This document shows positions 55,440 through 64,000 of a stretch of DNA of 64,000 nucleotides, piece by piece; position 1 is the first letter of the stretch, and every line of letters starts with the position of its first letter. The stretch lies in the NCBI GenBank assembly GCA_030611885.1, contig JAUWOY010000007.1, positions 19,750 to 83,749 on the forward strand. Reading direction: 5' to 3'. The notes below the pieces were generated by a model that worked only from the letters and a program-made list of their open reading frames with translations, did not search any database and was not told where the DNA came from. The position numbers and the translations under genes are program-made. Source of the DNA: Chloroflexota bacterium. GTDB taxonomy: Bacteria; Chloroflexota; Anaerolineae; VGOG01.

Positions 55440-58400
55440 TCACGGCGCGGGAAGCTGTACACTGAATTCCCACGTATGCATAAGGAAGGGCAAGAAGAGC
55501 CTATACTCCCCGCCTCCCGTCGTCACCCGCTTCTCGATCACGTTGCCCGCCCCGTCGTCGAGGAGCACGCTGTTGGTGATGGGCCCCTGCCCTGTAGCCT
55601 GCACTGCGAAGCGGACAGTGGCCATGCCGTTGACCGGCACACGCCCGCTCCAGGTGAGGCGGTGGGTGGAGGTATCGTAGACGGCTGGCCCGCCGCTGCC
55701 CGCCCAGGCCGAGCCGGGGACGTAGACGACCTCGGTGGGAAGGGTGTCGGTCAGAGTGACCATCGCCGGGCCGCTGCCCCCGTTTTTCACCAGGATGGTA
55801 TAGGTCAGCACCTGGCCGGGACTCTCCGCCCCCCCTTCCCCGGGGCTGCTGCTAACCCGCTTCTCCGAGGGGCTCAGATCCGGGGCCGCTATCGTCGTGG
55901 TGGCCGTGCGGGTGAAAGGCGAGTGCACACCGTCGTCAATGGTGGCTGTGTTGACGACGACCGTGCCATCTGGCAAGGGGAGCACGGTTCTCACGGCGAA
56001 GGAGAAGGAGGCTTGGCTGCCGCTGGGCACAGCGCCGCTCCACATGATACGGTTGGCGATATCATCGTAGATCGCCCCGCCAGTCGCGCTGCCCGGCTGG
56101 TAGACGGCGTGGGGAGGGATGGGGTCAACGACAGCCACCTCCGCCGCGTCGGCGATCCCCGCGTTGTGCAGGGTCAGGGTGTAGGTCAGCACCTCGCCGG
56201 GGATGGCCACGCTCTTATCCGCCTTCTTGGTCGAACCCTCCAGCTCGATGGTGTTGACCCGTGTCGTCGCCCGACGCTCGTAGGTCGTGCCCCGCCCATT
56301 GTCAATAATCGCCGTGTTGGTGATGATCGTCTCCGTCGGCAGCGGGTCGGCGATTTTCACCTGGAAGGCGATGGCGTGCGGCGGGGAAGGAGGTGAGATC
56401 AGAATAGCTAACCCGTCGCGCACGTAGGCTTCGTTGTAAACAACGGTCAGACCCTGGGCGCCGTCGGCGTTCTGAACACCGATGGTGGCCTCGTCCAGGC
56501 GATCAATCATGGACTGGTATTGATAGGTGATGGAGCCATCGGCTCGCAGGATGACCTGGAAAGTGTAGGGGCCACCGCTGCTGAAGTGGGGCGCCCCTAC
56601 ATAGGAGACCACCAGAGCGTCCTGGTTGTTGCTCCAATAGTAGCCCTCCCCGCTGCTGGAGAAGCTAAGATCATCCCAGAAGGGAGCCAGCAGGTTGCCC
56701 GGAGCTGTGGGATCGGGCAGAGCCGAGTTGCCAAAGTTGGAGCCGGAGATGGGCGACAGGCTCAGGAAGCCGTTGCTGCTGAGGTAGAACTGGGTGAATC
56801 CCTCGTTGTAAAAGGGGAAAGAAAAGCCGATGGGGAAGGGGCCGACGTTGGTGTCGTCGCCCAGGTCGGTGATGGGCGTGCCGATGCCGCTGATGTCCAC
56901 CCACTTGTAGACCGGGCCGCTGGGCTGATCGCTGTCGGTCCAGGCGTAGTCCTGTTCTATTACTGGCACAGCTCCCGTCCACTCGATCTGGTTCAGGGCT
57001 GCGTTGTAGATCGCCCCGCCGGTGACACTGCCGGATACGTAGGCCGTGTTCTGGGGGATGGGATCCACCAGGTTGACGTTGGGCGCCTCGATGGAGCCTG
57101 AGTTAATCAGAGAGATGGTGTAAGTCAACACGTCGCCAGCCGGGGCCACTGCCTTGTCCACCGTCTTGGTCGAGCCTGTCAGATTGGGGGCCAGCACCGT
57201 CGTGATTGCGCTGGCCTGGAGGGTGTGGCCTTGCCCGCTGTCCAGGATGGCCGTGTTGGTGATGGCCGTCCCTCCGGCCAGGGCCTCCTCGACGACCGCC
57301 TGGAAGGTGAAAGTGATCTTGGTCATGGCCGTCAGGGTGCCACTCCACTGAATGTGGTCAAAATCTGGATCGTAGACCGCGCCGCCGGTAGCGCTATCCG
57401 TGACGTAGGTCGTGTGCTCCGGGATCGGGTCGGTCAGGCTGATCTCGGGCAGGTCGGTGGCGCCGATGTTGTTCAGGGTCAGGGTGTAGGTCAGCGCCTC
57501 GCCCGGAACGACCGCCTCCTTGTCCACCGTCTTGGTCAGGGAGGGCAGGGTGAGCCAGGTGATGGATCGGGCTACCGTCTGGGCCAGCGCATCGCGGGGG
57601 CCTACGCTCTCCAGGCCGAATCCGAAGTAGATCACGCGGTAGGGGGGCGATTCGGCCTTGAGCCCCCGGATGCCCCCATCGGGATGGGCCAGGATGGGCC
57701 AGGCGGCATCGTCGGCAGGCCCGATCTCATCGGGATAGAAACAACCGAAGAGGGTGCAGAAACCCGTGTCCTTGTAGGCGTAGGTGTCGTTGAGGGTGAG
57801 GGTCAATCCCGCCAGGATGTCGGCCCCGATCAACTCGTCCAGGATCTCCGGCTCCCCGAGGAAGCTGGCGTGCAGGTAGTTGGTGTAGAAGGACGGGGCG
57901 TAGTTTTGGTAGTCGTCCCAATAGCCGATGTCCTGTCCGACGATGAGGAGCTGCCCCCCGCTGTCCAGGTAATCCATCAGGGCCTGGTCGGCGCCGATGT
58001 AGCCCGGCGACTGCCAGGGGTTGGCCCAGATGACGACGTCGTAGGCCCCCAGCTCCTCGGCGGTGGGAATATGGGCCGTGTCGGTGATGAGGCGCGTGTC
58101 GTAAAGGAAGCCAGCCTCGTCCAGAGCGTGCTGATAGTAAAGAGTGACGTTCTCCCCCATCCAGGTATCGGCGTCCACCAGCAGGAGGGAGGGGGCCGGG
58201 GACAGGGCGAAGTCCTGGCTGGTCACCTCCCCCTCGGCGATGCTAACCTCCGCCCACTGGATCTGATGGCCCGACAGGCTGGCCTCTACGGTGTAACTGC
58301 CCACAGGCAGGGTCAGGCTGTAGAACCCGTCGGCGTCCGCCGTCGCCGAGGCCGGGGTGTTCAAGGCACGGATCGTGGCCGCCAGCGGCTCCCCCGTCCT

Positions 58401-60221
58401 CCCCCTCGTCACCCGACCGCTGAGGGTTCCCGTTGGGGCCGGCTTCAGAGCCAGGTCGCGCATGGACATGTAGCCCGTGATCACCTCCACCCCCTGCGCC
58501 GTGGCCGAGAGGTAGCCGAACGCGCTGGCCGTGACGTCGTAGAAGCCCCCCGGCACGCTCACGGCGTAGGTCCCCGTGGCATCGGTGGTAGCGATGAACT
58601 TGTCACCGGCCTGGCTGACCCCACTGACTGTCGCTTCAGGAATCGGAGCGTCTTTGAACTTTGAACTTTGAACTTTGAGCTTTGAACTTGTTACCTGGCC
58701 GTAGAGCTTCCCCGCCCCCAGGGCCCAGCGGACGGCATCGTAGGCGTCAATCCGCCCCGCGCCGAAGGCGTTGTCGGGGCCGGTCTCGCCCAGACTTGTA
58801 CTGAGCCCCGTCGAAGTATCGGCGGCAGTATACTTCATGAAGTTCTCCAGGTCGTCGGCGGTCAGGGTGGGGGCGGCCTCCAGCAGCAGGGCCGTCAGTC
58901 CCACCGCGTGGGGAGTAGCCATGGAGGTGCCACTCCAGCCGCTCTCGTAACTACCGCCGGGAACACTGGAGCGGATGTCCACGCCGGGCGCGCTGACCTC
59001 AGGCTTGGTTTCTTCCCAGAAGGAGGGACCCAGGCTGCTGAAGGAGGCGATGGCGTCCTCGGAGTTGGTGGCGCCCACGGCCACGGCGTGGGGGAAGCTG
59101 CCCGGTGAGTGCACGGACCCACTGCCCATCTCCCCGTCGTTGCCGGCGGCGAAGACGGGGAAGATGCCCGCTGCTCGCCAGGCTGCCACGTCGGGCCAGA
59201 AGGCGGGATTGGCCCCGTTCGCGTCGCCCCAGGAGTTGTTGACCACGTCGGGGGCTTGGCTGGGATCCGGGTTCTCCCCGTCGAGGTCGGTGGGGGCCAG
59301 GATCCACTGGAAGCCCTGGTGGATCTTCACGTCATCGGTGACGCCGGAATCATCGAAGATCTTGACGGCGATCCAGCGAGCGCCGGGGGCCACACCGATT
59401 TGATTTGCACTCCCGTCGTCCCCCACGATGGTGCCCATGGTGTGGGTGCCGTGGCCGTGGCCATCGTCGGGTGCATCGGGGTAGGTGGCCGTGGGATCGA
59501 ACCAATTATACTCGTGATCCCCAGCGGCGCCACGATATTGGCCTTGCAGAGCGGGGTGGGTGCAGTCCACGCCGGTGTCCACGTTGGCCACCACTACCCC
59601 GCGCCCGGTGATGCCGAAATCGCTCCACACCTGATCGGCCCGCACCTGGGCGATGTTCCACTCCACTTGTTGGATATTGGGTATTGGGTATTGGATATTG
59701 GGTATTGGAGGTTGGAAGTTTGAAGTTTGAAGTTTGGATTTGGGATTTGGCAGTTGATGCCTGTGATTGGCGCGGATTCTCTCCACCTCTGGTCGGGCGG
59801 CCAGGGCCAGGAGGGTCTCCAGGTCGCCGGTCACGGCCAGGCCATTGAAGACCCAGAAGGGGACGTATTCCTCGACGCGGCCTGAGGCCTGCTGTCCATC
59901 CAGATAAGCCCGGATGCCTCGCTGGCTCCGCTCGGCCACGGCCTGCAGGGATGAGACCACCACCTGGCGGCGGGTCAACTTCCCCTGGATCTGCCGCGCC
60001 GGGGCCAGGTCGGCCTGCTGGGCCAGGTGGACGATGTAGGTGATCTTCTCCCCGGAGGCCAGCTCCTTCAGAACCTGAGGCTCGATCTTGATCCGCAGGG
60101 CCAGGGGGATCTTCTGGAGAGAGAGCGGGTCGGGCGAGGGATCCGCCATGATGAGGGAGGGGATCAGCACCAGGGATAGTACAGCTATGAGAACAAGGCC
60201 GAACCATTTGCGCCAAGTCAT
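55440..60221 (-). CDS. subtilisin-like S8 serine protease, 1593 aa, with propeptide, carboxypeptidase-regulatory-like and DUF11 repeat domains
   Basis: Catalytic triad contexts VANVDTGVD, HGHGTHTMG, GTSMATPHAVG. N-terminal signal/anchor. C-terminal repeats with GE.LTYT..L.N.G signatures. Confidence 0.9.
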   Translation of the reverse strand: MTWRKWFGLVLIAVLSLVLIPSLIMADPSPDPLSLQKIPLALRIKIEPQVLKELASGEKITYIVHLAQQADLAPARQIQGKLTRRQVVVSSLQAVAERSQRGIRAYLDGQQASGRVEEYVPFWVFNGLAVTGDLETLLALAARPEVERIRANHRHQLPNPKSKLQTSNFQPPIPNIQYPIPNIQQVEWNIAQVRADQVWSDFGITGRGVVVANVDTGVDCTHPALQGQYRGAAGDHEYNWFDPTATYPDAPDDGHGHGTHTMGTIVGDDGSANQIGVAPGARWIAVKIFDDSGVTDDVKIHQGFQWILAPTDLDGENPDPSQAPDVVNNSWGDANGANPAFWPDVAAWRAAGIFPVFAAGNDGEMGSGSVHSPGSFPHAVAVGATNSEDAIASFSSLGPSFWEETKPEVSAPGVDIRSSVPGGSYESGWSGTSMATPHAVGLTALLLEAAPTLTADDLENFMKYTAADTSTGLSTSLGETGPDNAFGAGRIDAYDAVRWALGAGKLYGQVTSSKLKVQSSKFKDAPIPEATVSGVSQAGDKFIATTDATGTYAVSVPGGFYDVTASAFGYLSATAQGVEVITGYMSMRDLALKPAPTGTLSGRVTRGRTGEPLAATIRALNTPASATADADGFYSLTLPVGSYTVEASLSGHQIQWAEVSIAEGEVTSQDFALSPAPSLLLVDADTWMGENVTLYYQHALDEAGFLYDTRLITDTAHIPTAEELGAYDVVIWANPWQSPGYIGADQALMDYLDSGGQLLIVGQDIGYWDDYQNYAPSFYTNYLHASFLGEPEILDELIGADILAGLTLTLNDTYAYKDTGFCTLFGCFYPDEIGPADDAAWPILAHPDGGIRGLKAESPPYRVIYFGFGLESVGPRDALAQTVARSITWLTLPSLTKTVDKEAVVPGEALTYTLTLNNIGATDLPEISLTDPIPEHTTYVTDSATGGAVYDPDFDHIQWSGTLTAMTKITFTFQAVVEEALAGGTAITNTAILDSGQGHTLQASAITTVLAPNLTGSTKTVDKAVAPAGDVLTYTISLINSGSIEAPNVNLVDPIPQNTAYVSGSVTGGAIYNAALNQIEWTGAVPVIEQDYAWTDSDQPSGPVYKWVDISGIGTPITDLGDDTNVGPFPIGFSFPFYNEGFTQFYLSSNGFLSLSPISGSNFGNSALPDPTAPGNLLAPFWDDLSFSSSGEGYYWSNNQDALVVSYVGAPHFSSGGPYTFQVILRADGSITYQYQSMIDRLDEATIGVQNADGAQGLTVVYNEAYVRDGLAILISPPSPPHAIAFQVKIADPLPTETIITNTAIIDNGRGTTYERRATTRVNTIELEGSTKKADKSVAIPGEVLTYTLTLHNAGIADAAEVAVVDPIPPHAVYQPGSATGGAIYDDIANRIMWSGAVPSGSQASFSFAVRTVLPLPDGTVVVNTATIDDGVHSPFTRTATTTIAAPDLSPSEKRVSSSPGEGGAESPGQVLTYTILVKNGGSGPAMVTLTDTLPTEVVYVPGSAWAGSGGPAVYDTSTHRLTWSGRVPVNGMATVRFAVQATGQGPITNSVLLDDGAGNVIEKRVTTGGGEYRLFLPFLMHTWEFSVQLPAP
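58652..58686. repeat. heptanucleotide tract (CTTTGAA x5) inside the protease gene
   Basis: ctttgaa x3, ctttgag, ctttgaa; encodes SSKLKVQSSKFK. Confidence 0.9.
59669..59759. repeat. 13-unit compound heptanucleotide tract inside the protease gene
   Basis: gttggat attgggt attgggt attggat attgggt attggag gttggaa gtttgaa gtttgaa gtttgga tttggga tttggca; encodes NPKSKLQTSNFQPPIPNIQYPIPNIQ. Confidence 0.9.
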
Positions 60222-61597: not shown

Positions 61598-62290
61598 ATG
61601 CCTAACCTCAAAATTCTGAAGGTCAACGCTGAGCGCCGCCGTGAGATGCGTCCGGCGGCCGAGCGACTTTATCGCCAACACCAGGATCAGGTTCCCCGGT
61701 TGATCCGCCAGTTAGCCGGGCCTACCCAGGCCGAGCATGACCGCGCTTTCGAGTTGTTGACCCAGATGGGCGAGATGGTCGCCTCTGAGCTGCTCGACGC
61801 CCTGGCCGATCCAACGCTGGACGTCATCGCCGCCGATGAAGTGGTCTCGCTCCTGGGCTTGACGGGCGACGAGCGCGCCCGCGAGCCGCTGTGGCAATTC
61901 TTCCAGGCTCAGGATGACCTGGAGCGCGCCTCTTCTGCCGCCCTCAGCCTGAGCGGGCTGGGCGACGACCGCGTTCTTCCCTTCCTGCGCCGGACCCTCG
62001 ACTCCGACGACGAAGAGCTCGTCTCCAATGCCGTGGCAGCGATGATCACCGTCGGCACCATGGAAGACATCCCCCTCCTGCGCAAAATCCACCGCCAACA
62101 CTCGACCAACTGGGAGATTCGCTTCGGGATCGCCAACGTCATACTGACCATCGTGGGCGAGGCCGACCAGCGCACTTTCAACCGCACGCTGGACGACATT
62201 CAGGCCCGCTTCGCCGACCGCCACCTGTGGGACGACATTTGGACCATTCTGGACAGTGAGTTCGGGTCGAAGGACGTCACGTGGCACTGA
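61598..62290 (+). CDS. HEAT-repeat protein
   Basis: AAAGGAGG before the ATG. Repeated helical LLDALADP / LRRTLDSDDEELV-type HEAT/PBS-lyase-like units. Confidence 0.65.
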   Translation: MPNLKILKVNAERRREMRPAAERLYRQHQDQVPRLIRQLAGPTQAEHDRAFELLTQMGEMVASELLDALADPTLDVIAADEVVSLLGLTGDERAREPLWQFFQAQDDLERASSAALSLSGLGDDRVLPFLRRTLDSDDEELVSNAVAAMITVGTMEDIPLLRKIHRQHSTNWEIRFGIANVILTIVGEADQRTFNRTLDDIQARFADRHLWDDIWTILDSEFGSKDVTWH

Positions 62291-64000
62291 GGCCGCTTTG
62301 CTTACATGTCAACGTCTCCATCGGCACCGCTGCCGTGTTGGGCCTGGCCGACATCGTCATGGACGCCGCACCCACCACCGCCTACTTGATGCTGGGGGGG
62401 CGTTGCGTTTTGGATTGCGGCTTCTGCGCCCAGGCGCGCTCCAGCCAGGCCAGCGCGCTGAAGCTCTCCCGCGTCACCTGGCCGGAGTTCGACCAGGCAC
62501 GGACCCTGGCGCTGCTGGCCCAAGCCGTCGAGCGGGGGGACATCAGGCGCTGCTGCCTCCAGGTGACAGTGGCCGAGGGTTACTTCCAGCGCACGCTGGA
62601 GGTGATCCGAGCCGTGCGAGCAACCTGCGACGTTCCTGTTGACGCCGCCATCCTGCCCAGAGACATGGCCCAGGTTGAGGAGTTGCTGGCAGCAGGAGTG
62701 GATCACATCGGCTTCGGGCTGGACGCCGCTTGCGAGCGGGTCTTCCAGCGAGTCAAAGGCGGGAGCTGGGCGCGGAGCCTCTCCCTCATCGAAGAAACAG
62801 CGCGGCGGTTCCCCGGTCGTGGAGCGGTGCATCTCATCGTCGGCCTGGGTGAGACAGAACAGGAGATGGCCGAGACGATCCAGCGGATGCACGACCTGGG
62901 CCTCATCGTGGGGCTCTTTGCCTTCACCCCTGTCCGAGGCACCCGCCTGGAAGACGCTTCCCCACCTCCCCTCTCCACCTATCGTCGAATGCAGGTCGCT
63001 CAATATCTAATAACCAATAACCTGGCTCGAATCGGGAATTTCACCTTTTCCGCCACAGGTCAACTTTCCAGTTTTAACCTTCCCCGCTTGTCAGAAATCC
63101 TGGCTGACGGCGTTGCCTTCCAGACCTCTGGCTGCCCCGATTGCAATCGTCCCTTTTACAACGAGCGCCCTGGCGGGACGATGTACAATTATCCCAAGCC
63201 ATTGACGCCGAAACAGACAAAGGCTGCTGTCGAAGAGCTAGAAGTTGATGAAACTAACCGTGAAACGTCAAACGTCATAAACGGTTCGACTATCTACCCT
63301 GCTGCTGAGTGGCGGCTGTTGGAAACTGGGCTGGCGGATGGTGCTACCAACATGGCCATTGACGAAGCCATCCTGTGGGCTGTGGCTGAGGGGGAATCCC
63401 GGCCCACGCTTCGTTTCTACGGCTGGCAGCCGCCTTGCCTGTCCATCGGCTACAGCCAATCAATGGAGGGCGAGGTGGATGTAGACAGGTGTCGAGAGGC
63501 CGGCATCGGCTTCGTGCGGCGGCCAACGGGCGGGCGATCCATCCTCCACGCCGACGAGCTGACCTACAGCGTCGTCGCCCGCCAGGCGGAGCCTCGCGTG
63601 GCCGGGGGCGTGATCGAGTCCTACCGTCGTCTGAGCGCGGGATTAGTGGCGGGGCTGCGGGCACTGGGGGTAGACGCTAGTCAAGCCCTCTCCCCTTCCT
63701 CCCCAGCGCAGTCAGCTGCCTGTTTCGACGCTCCATCCAGCTACGAGATCACCGTGGACGGCAAGAAGCTGGTGGGCAGCGCTCAGGTGCGCAAGAAGAG
63801 GGTAGTGCTCCAGCACGGCTCCCTGCCCCTGGAAGGCGACATCGCCCGTATCTTCGACTTCTTGAGAGTGTCATCGGAGGAGAGGCGGGAGGAGTTGAAG
63901 CAAGAACTGCGGGCCTGTGCAACTTCGCTGGAGTTGGCGCTGGGATACGGCGTCCCTTTCGACGAAGTGGCCCGACATCTAGCGGCCGGCTTCGCCCAGG
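62281..64000 (+). CDS. fused radical SAM (BioB/LipS-like) + lipoate/octanoyl-protein ligase family protein; 3' end beyond window; start uncertain (GTG 62281 or ATG 62359); absent from ORF track
   Basis: Manual translation in the frame of 62308 is open from 62260 to 64000. It reads LMLGGRCVLDCGFCAQA (CxxxCxxC), ...HLIVGLGETEQEM..., then EWRLLETG...NMAIDEAIL...RFYGWQPPCLSIGY...VRRPTGGRSILHADELTYSV (LplA/LipM-type). Confidence 0.7.
   Translation, partial: MALRPLCLHVNVSIGTAAVLGLADIVMDAAPTTAYLMLGGRCVLDCGFCAQARSSQASALKLSRVTWPEFDQARTLALLAQAVERGDIRRCCLQVTVAEGYFQRTLEVIRAVRATCDVPVDAAILPRDMAQVEELLAAGVDHIGFGLDAACERVFQRVKGGSWARSLSLIEETARRFPGRGAVHLIVGLGETEQEMAETIQRMHDLGLIVGLFAFTPVRGTRLEDASPPPLSTYRRMQVAQYLITNNLARIGNFTFSATGQLSSFNLPRLSEILADGVAFQTSGCPDCNRPFYNERPGGTMYNYPKPLTPKQTKAAVEELEVDETNRETSNVINGSTIYPAAEWRLLETGLADGATNMAIDEAILWAVAEGESRPTLRFYGWQPPCLSIGYSQSMEGEVDVDRCREAGIGFVRRPTGGRSILHADELTYSVVARQAEPRVAGGVIESYRRLSAGLVAGLRALGVDASQALSPSSPAQSAACFDAPSSYEITVDGKKLVGSAQVRKKRVVLQHGSLPLEGDIARIFDFLRVSSEERREELKQELRACATSLELALGYGVPFDEVARHLAAGFAQ

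Follow-up and report, generated by a model that had tools for sequence, protein, structure and literature searches.

The window analysed here is a stretch of 64,000 nucleotides from the genome of a Chloroflexota bacterium (G000:C28:19750-83749, where G000 designates the genome of the window), a metagenome bin that is 93% complete with 5.6% contamination. It ends inside an open reading frame (ORF) in which a predicted LipS2-type lipoyl synthase is followed, in one polypeptide, by a putative LipM-like octanoyl transferase. This fused gene, the 7-base repeat found at the junction of its two halves and the state of the same junction in related genomes are the subject of this report. An earlier reading of the DNA made from its letters alone (the sequence-only reading) had proposed one frame that stays open to the window end. 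This is borne out, and the downstream sequence of the contig extends the frame by 110 bases past the window to complete a protein of 609 residues. The features of the locus are the following:

62281..64000, + strand: fused lipS2-lipM-like ORF, closing 110 bases beyond the window end, 609 residues in total
62311..63195, + strand: predicted LipS2 domain, residues 11-305 (NF053743, 358.3 bits for a cut-off of 270, profile positions 2-292 of 292)
62404..62427, + strand: radical SAM CX3CX2C motif (C42, C46, C49), each cysteine kept in at least 90% of 57 aligned sequences
63250..63285, + strand: linker, residues 324-335, from a worn heptamer array (Tandem Repeats Finder; predicted local distance difference test score, pLDDT, below 50; junctions of relatives)
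63298..64000, continuing past the window end, + strand: LipM/LplA-type catalytic domain, residues ~340-609 (PF21948 LplA-B_cat, 133.4 bits)
63721..63768, + strand: Cys481 to Lys496, 15 residues apart, predicted transferase active site, both residues kept in 41 of 41 aligned homologues
62270..62283, + strand: AAGGA, resembling a ribosome-binding site, and GTG start of the fused gene, read from the sequence
61598..62290, + strand: upstream HEAT-repeat ORF, 230 residues (PF13646 HEAT_2, 36 bits for a cut-off of 27.7)

The fusion is very unlikely to be an assembly slip. A contig of 5,098 bases (depth 15) produced by an independent assembler from the probable source sample (X1) covers positions 62700-63900 with 0 differences. 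The frame is bounded on its 5' side by a TGA stop codon at 62257-62259, so that the GTG at 62281 is the first possible start, and no stop codon is found up to 64000. The AAGGA is located 6 bases 5' of this GTG, and recorded homologues, for instance P0005, start at the same residues as the fused ORF. It had also been stated that no in-frame start codon precedes the second domain: none is found in residues 309-346, but ATG301 and TTG308 are present in the LipS2 tail. TTG347 and ATG358 are in frame as well, inside the transferase fold.

Two conserved domains in one polypeptide

The amino-terminal half is a predicted LipS2-type lipoyl synthase. It passes the curated LipS2 model, a genome-wide profile search with the same model (NF053743) gives 360.6 bits for this ORF, and the Radical SAM family PF04055 covers residues 39-202. 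Residues C42, C46, C49, C92, H184, C285 and C288 are each kept in at least 90% of the 57 aligned sequences. They match, by spacing and not by direct alignment, the cluster ligands of the Thermococcus kodakarensis LipS2 that were mapped by mutagenesis, namely C39/C43/C46, C85, H178 and C276/C279, as described in PMC9585515. Of the designation "BioB/LipS-like" given to this half by the sequence-only reading, the LipS part stands while the BioB part does not (TIGR00433, 44.4 bits for a cut-off of 225). LipA identity was likewise rejected (TIGR00510, 31.5 bits for a cut-off of 310.25). A weak period-7 tract (CAATAAC, 3.1 copies, score 30) is present in the LipS2 coding region at 63001-63022 (residues ~241-248); it is probably due to chance because the protein segment that it encodes is conserved in relatives.

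The second half belongs to the LplA/LipM-type, as had been proposed: the PF21948 match spans residues 353-572 with 133 bits for a cut-off of 27. Among solved structures its closest relative comes from the two-part LplA of Thermoplasma acidophilum, whose catalytic subunit aligns from end to end (E 1e-22). The curated LplA models all failed (TIGR00545, 53.4 bits against 280; NF053750, 106.5 against 480; NF053751, 73.3 against 550) and no LplB accessory domain (PF10437) was found in or next to the ORF. Adenylation by LplA catalytic subunits depends on LplB, while LipB, LipM and LipL act through a cysteine thioester. The position of the invariant Cys481 is occupied by a valine in the T. acidophilum LplA. 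Because LplB is missing and an invariant cysteine precedes the active-site lysine, the second half is probably a LipM-type octanoyl transferase. The LipM octanoyltransferase of Bacillus subtilis, reportedly described by Christensen and Cronan in 2010, would have in common with it a catalytic domain of ~275 residues without accessory domain, an invariant cysteine ahead of the lysine of the active site and GcvH as likely acceptor. The differences are the fusion to LipS2 and the archaeal LplA as nearest solved relative. The role of the cysteine as acyl-enzyme residue is in print for the paralogue LipL (10.1101/419234).

An AlphaFold2 model computed on the 57-sequence alignment has a mean pLDDT of 89.4. 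Both domains are confident, the LipS2 domain mostly above 90, and values below 50 are found only at residues 1-4, in the linker (324-335) and in a loop (472-485). The first strand of the transferase domain corresponds to residues 342-352. Prediction of a complex between the LipS2 (1-320) and transferase (338-609) segments gave a score of 0.00 and a mark of 0.32, which is silent on binding either way. Note that the low-confidence loop includes residues 472-480 (63694-63720; pLDDT below 50), just before Cys481. In P0002, P0003, P0007, P0022 and P0024 this loop carries Pro/Gly/Arg-rich inserts of 20-50 residues, the contigs of several relatives break there, and contigs from other samples diverge at this point into C-rich sequence. 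The loop may be a second hot spot for repeat insertion within the gene.

Concerning the neighbouring genes, the GTG start of the fused ORF lies inside GTGGCACTGA and therefore overlaps the TGA stop codon of the HEAT-repeat ORF. The HEAT-repeat gene is also the upstream neighbour in the same-genus genome G001. In two class-level relatives (L025 in G038 and L023 in G021) an ORF that looks like a dihydrolipoyl dehydrogenase, as judged by eye, is found directly 5' of lipS2, at the place that the HEAT-repeat gene takes in the genus of the window. The genes 3' of the fused ORF (DUF503, DUF3467 and others) have no relation to lipoate.

Lipoate metabolism and the identity of the second half

LipS1 is encoded on another contig (C38:49785-50558, 292.8 bits for a cut-off of 230), between ORFs that resemble tgt and hutU by eye. 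No LipA was found at cut-off in the genome, in which the best match to the LipA model is the fused ORF itself (32 bits against 310), and no LipB was found in this 93%-complete genome. With the LipS2 model passed, LipS1 present and neither canonical enzyme found, the LipS1/LipS2-type route that had been suggested from the letters gains support. One GcvH (126.8 bits for a cut-off of 117) is the sole lipoyl acceptor found, and a search of the genome for a 2-oxoacid dehydrogenase E2 core found none. The only LplB-type domain (PF10437) in the genome forms the carboxyl terminus of a separate 370-residue Lpl(AB) encoded beside gcvH on contig C71. A free-standing lplB was found neither in the genome as a whole nor adjoining the fused gene. 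None appears in the ORF lists (at least 110 residues) of five relatives, though a gene of the small size of lplB could fall below that length cut-off. On C71 (G000:C71:36594-39834, L032) an HdrA-like ORF, GcvH and the Lpl(AB) are coded in a row. This arrangement, a heterodisulfide-reductase-like gene with a lipoate-binding protein and its ligase, recalls the sHdr-LbpA systems discussed in PMC10332631. The GcvH is a candidate glycine-cleavage H protein.

The system resembles the LipS1/LipS2 pathway of T. kodakarensis (TK2109/TK2248) and the bacterial sLpl(AB)-LipS1/S2 systems in its LipS2 ligands, in the presence of LipS1 and in that LipA was not found (described in PMC9585515 and PMC10332631). 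The order of lipS2 followed by a ligase or transferase gene is also that described for Archaea and Chloroflexota. It differs in that LipS2 and the transferase form one polypeptide, LipS1 is unlinked and there is no adjacent lplB. According to PMC9585515 and PMC13692748, LipS2 acts on the octanoyl substrate, inserting the first sulfur at C8, and LipS1 acts on the 8-mercapto product. Given this order, the fusion links step 1 of the pathway (octanoylation) with step 2 (sulfur insertion at C8).

The alternative that the second half is an ATP-dependent ligase subunit of the LplA type, which would use free octanoate or lipoate and perhaps obtain the LplB function in trans, is doubtful yet has arguments on its side. 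Both the closest solved structure and the best NCBIfam matches are LplA catalytic subunits, and the gene order lipS2-lplA-lplB-lipS1 is described in Chloroflexota (Tanabe et al. 2023, PMC10332631). Against it stand the lack of a free-standing lplB in the genome, beside the gene and in the five ORF lists, the invariant Cys481 that is absent from the T. acidophilum LplA, and the scores of the LplA models, far below their cut-offs. In addition, LipM is reported together with LipS1/S2 in several bacteria in PMC10332631.

The heptamer junction in the window and its relatives

At the junction, Tandem Repeats Finder detects a period-7 tract of 2.7 copies (score 31, 63259-63277), and only at its lowest threshold. 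Its units are GTGAAAC/GTCAAAC and it is associated with palindrome arms of 6 bases, AACCGT/ACGGTT (~63255-63286), that run one base past the linker end. The palindrome and heptamer tract described by the sequence-only reading are thus real, though weak in this genome. The junction hairpin (-15.8 kcal/mol, z -2.35), to which these arms contribute, folds only modestly better than shuffled sequences, 6 of 200 of which fold as well, and a role for it in this genome was dismissed. The tract is considered more than chance only because relatives carry 4-8 units of the same heptamer at the same site.

The survey of this junction covered 41 genomes, that of the window and 40 relatives, and 13 junctions were read base by base. 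In all four class-level relatives read (G021, G038, G015 and G024) the genes are separate; the stop codon of the first touches or overlaps the start codon of the second, and heptamers are absent. The junctions of the family are filled with units of GTGAAAC/GTCAAAC, followed in some genomes by inverted units. Nine of them are readable, including that of the window. Two are fused (G000 and G008, the latter as far as its contig extends) and seven are split. In G001 and G010 the TGA of LipS2 and the GTG of the transferase are both found inside the array, in different frames; G012, G011 and G004 are split in the third frame, and G003 and G005 are split with other inserts. The candidate fusion of G005 ("open_frame 808") was rejected as its translation shows stop codons in a 560-base insert. 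Left out of the count were G002 and G007, whose junctions are unreadable, and G006, G009 and G013, which have no usable LipS2 match. Note that the insert of G005 (L017, G005:C270), located between lipS2 and the transferase gene, resembles by eye a frameshifted gene of a small GIY-YIG-type nuclease. In G007 (G007:C45:10334-14142) the two halves are 1.9 kb apart and the second match begins at query residue 302, hence the LipS2 tail seems duplicated on both sides of the insertion.

Database proteins give a concordant picture. Those nearest to the amino-terminal half (84-90% identity) are stand-alone proteins of 334-360 residues whose carboxyl terminus lies in the array. P0022 and P0024 are transferases that stand alone and have repeated VKRETSN at their amino terminus. 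In P0002, P0003 and the fragment P0007 the fusion runs through other numbers of units. Keeping the halves apart, as four class-level relatives and seven of the nine family junctions do, fits the earlier proposal that a repeat joined two formerly separate genes; what does not hold is a single clean insertion event. By this comparison, the join reflects the frame in which a 7-base repeat array stands at present, a state that is fused in some relatives but split in other ones. Alignment by eye of the window with G001 shows several small indels at the junction, which together add one base.

The same junction varies by one unit among close strains. Contigs from another sample of the same study (X2) and from another study (X3) carry exactly one extra unit, CGTGAAA, behind position 63258; that of X3 has 5 further differences over 171 bases. 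The strains that differ by this single heptamer are ~97% identical. With the extra unit the LipS2 frame ends in "...ETNRET stop", which is the carboxyl terminus of P0009, and a GTG appears in the transferase frame (worked out by hand). A single added heptamer is thus enough to turn the fused gene into two genes that overlap. All runs were compared as contigs, in which minor within-sample variants are not visible. Five runs recorded as RNA contained 0.05-0.07 of the words sampled, a value that says nothing on expression.

Heptamers are abundant beyond this locus. The genome has 272 exact period-7 runs versus 3, 20, 29 and 3 for periods 5, 6, 8 and 9, respectively, and 13 arrays of at least 2 exact GT[GC]AAAC units, some of which sit where one long ORF ends and another opens. 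At G000:C57:12062-12089 four GTGAAAC/GTCAAAC units are in frame within a 585-residue membrane protein that looks MurJ-like by eye (L033, ORF 604-2361). They encode VKRETSNVKR, the same peptide as at the lipS2 junctions of relatives, and adjoin another heptamer array. Heptanucleotide tandem repeats are known as the short tandemly repeated repetitive (STRR) sequences of filamentous cyanobacteria and among the long simple-sequence repeats of prokaryotes. The strong genome-wide excess of period 7 and the presence of arrays both between genes and in frame within genes are common to those repeats and the present ones. The particularity here is an array placed exactly on a stop/start junction, whose frame state decides between one protein and two. 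A literature search for heptanucleotide repeats in Chloroflexi found no papers. Other arrays of 5-7 copies (CTTTGAA, TTGGGTA and TTGGAAG) are found in the window at 58652-58689 and 59669-59756, in frame and translated as short repeated peptides. They lie in a minus-strand ORF of 1,593 residues (55440-60221) whose product resembles a secreted protease of the subtilisin type.

Both halves are under constraint, as judged from the ratio of nonsynonymous to synonymous substitution rates (dN/dS). For LipS2 it is 0.15 versus G008 and 0.19 versus G001; for the transferase it is 0.07 versus G008, over 96 codons only, and 0.33 versus G001. These values bear on the view of the fusion as a recent slippage accident, neutral or slightly harmful, in which tethering has no value, the second half may be impaired and Lpl(AB) covers lipoylation. 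The patchiness of the fused state among near-identical strains, the 0.33 of the transferase versus G001, highest of the four values, and the presence of a full salvage ligase speak for such an accident. We consider it unlikely, since the examined catalytic-site residues are all intact and dN/dS is well below 1. Moreover, stable fusions of the same two domains arose and persisted in other lineages, and without this ORF no transferase except the ligase would be available to feed LipS2/LipS1.

The one-unit polymorphism could also be taken for a true phase-variation switch, with the cell alternating between fused and separate enzymes. That the unit carries both a stop and a start codon, and that it varies between strains ~97% identical, is what such a switch would look like. 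This is nevertheless very improbable: arrays of only 2-8, often imperfect units should slip slowly, the two activities are encoded in either state, so that no on/off phenotype is evident, and there was no within-sample mixture, X1 having one form, though contigs drop rare variants. An assembly or sequencing artefact, with the genes separate in the cell as in most relatives, could be imagined from the seven of nine split junctions, the error-prone nature of repeats, the single base that sets the frame and the contamination of the bin, but is discounted almost entirely in view of the depth-15 independent assembly without differences, of the short, worn array (2.7 copies), which is not a hard target, of the several small indels versus G001 instead of one, and of the other fused forms (G008, P0002, P0003 and P0007) with other unit numbers.

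Recurrence and meaning of the fusion

The sequence-only reading had called a covalent fusion of this kind unusual. It is rare but not unique, as at least 34 clusters outside the clade of the window protein, among the best 120 database clusters, have both domains in the same order, and five species genomes outside that clade are fused as well. The linkers of these outside fusions are Pro/Gly/Ala-rich, with 50-95 residues between two anchor motifs and no heptamer origin. A quick maximum-likelihood tree was built from 112 LipS2 domains. In it, the window protein belongs to a well-supported clade of 10 (7 unfused, 3 fused) nested in a larger clade in which 77 of the 80 members are unfused; the remaining fusions group in clades of their own. 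The well-supported branches force at least 4 changes between the fused and unfused states. Note that the motif rule used for these labels designated P0080 and P0120 as "unfused" despite both Pfam domains. Of 80 species-representative loci submitted to an ORF-extension test, 4 are fused at full length, 2 are fused to the contig end, 72 are separate and 2 are undetermined. The six fused loci are G008 from the Anaerolineae and five assigned to Symbiobacterium, Clostridiales, Firmicutes and an unclassified bacterium, while separate genes are found in Desulfosporosinus, Pelosinus and Thorarchaeota, among others.

The Bacillota-like fusions (P0012-P0018 and others; Symbiobacterium, Clostridiales) share with the window protein the domains, their order and the conserved residues. 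They differ by their separate clades in the LipS2 tree and unrelated linkers, and look fixed, not polymorphic. Since independent fused clades exist, a fusion of this kind can be viable. A related logic is found in the bifunctional lipoate-protein ligase/lipoyl synthase (NF053790), in which an attachment enzyme is fused to a sulfur-insertion enzyme; the domain order is opposite and the synthase is LipA. The window protein is not a member of that family (50 bits for a cut-off of 800). No mention of a fusion between LipS2 and a transferase or ligase was found in the main text of PMC10332631, in the 2026 review PMC13692748 or in the literature searches. The fusion is thus rare, recurrent, so far undescribed in the literature searched and a variant of a known pathway.

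Taken together, the ORF is best read as a genuine natural fusion of LipS2 with a LipM-like octanoyl transferase of predicted function, a reading to which we give a probability of about 0.7. From the sequence comparisons it is a real fusion, rare and labile in evolution, and the same comparisons show how it came about. In the class, lipS2 and the transferase gene were ancestrally separate and in that order, the stop codon of one touching or overlapping the start codon of the other. In this family the junction was colonised by an array of tandem GTGAAAC/GTCAAAC units. Each heptamer unit shifts the frame by one, and of the three frames of the array one reads through as VKRETSN, the second gives a TGA stop and the third a GTG start. 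The number of units and small indels therefore decide between a fused gene, as in this genome, and two overlapping genes, as in most relatives and in near-identical strains of other samples. In the protein, the transferase domain would load the lipoyl lysine of GcvH with octanoate, probably donated by octanoyl-acyl carrier protein (ACP) by way of a thioester on Cys481. The tethered LipS2 domain would then insert sulfur at C8 and the unlinked LipS1 would finish at C6, the disordered 12-residue linker merely tethering the two steps.

Several observations weigh against this reading. The best NCBIfam match of the second half is an LplA model, far below its cut-off, and no curated LipM model matched this half in the NCBIfam search. 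Cys481 is only the presumed equivalent of the catalytic acyl-enzyme cysteine of LipM. The complete Lpl(AB) encoded beside gcvH might cover lipoylation by salvage. The in-frame ATG301 and TTG308 could permit separate initiation of the second half, and the predicted template modelling score (pTM) of the structural model, 0.59, means that it sets no arrangement of the two domains. Only 2 of the 9 readable family junctions are fused, and this state could have arisen by accident, with a neutral or mildly harmful effect. Finally, a systematic read error is possible because the second assembly probably uses the same reads.

For annotation, the strain will determine whether gene callers give one gene or two at this locus, and the "split" forms are no pseudogenes. 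That the domain which attaches octanoate is joined to LipS2 rather than to LipS1 agrees with the published LipS2-first order and suggests a direct hand-over of the same protein-bound octanoyl arm between the two enzymes. The fusion proteins found here and in Bacillota are ready-made constructs for tests of such a hand-over and for co-crystallisation with GcvH.

A broader and speculative proposal, which we hold improbable at present, is that GTG/TGA-containing heptamer arrays of Anaerolineae act as movable stop-start cassettes at gene boundaries that reversibly fuse operon neighbours by gain or loss of one unit, so that this lineage would continuously sample fusions of consecutive pathway enzymes and selection could keep the useful ones. 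If this were true, no case before the lipS2-lipM junction would have been caught in both states in strains that are nearly identical. Within this proposal, the independent, fixed fusions of Bacillota suggest that tethering an octanoyl transferase to LipS2 is advantageous. The locus offers a view, at the resolution of a single unit, of a 7-base repeat that joins and separates neighbouring genes while neither of them is destroyed.

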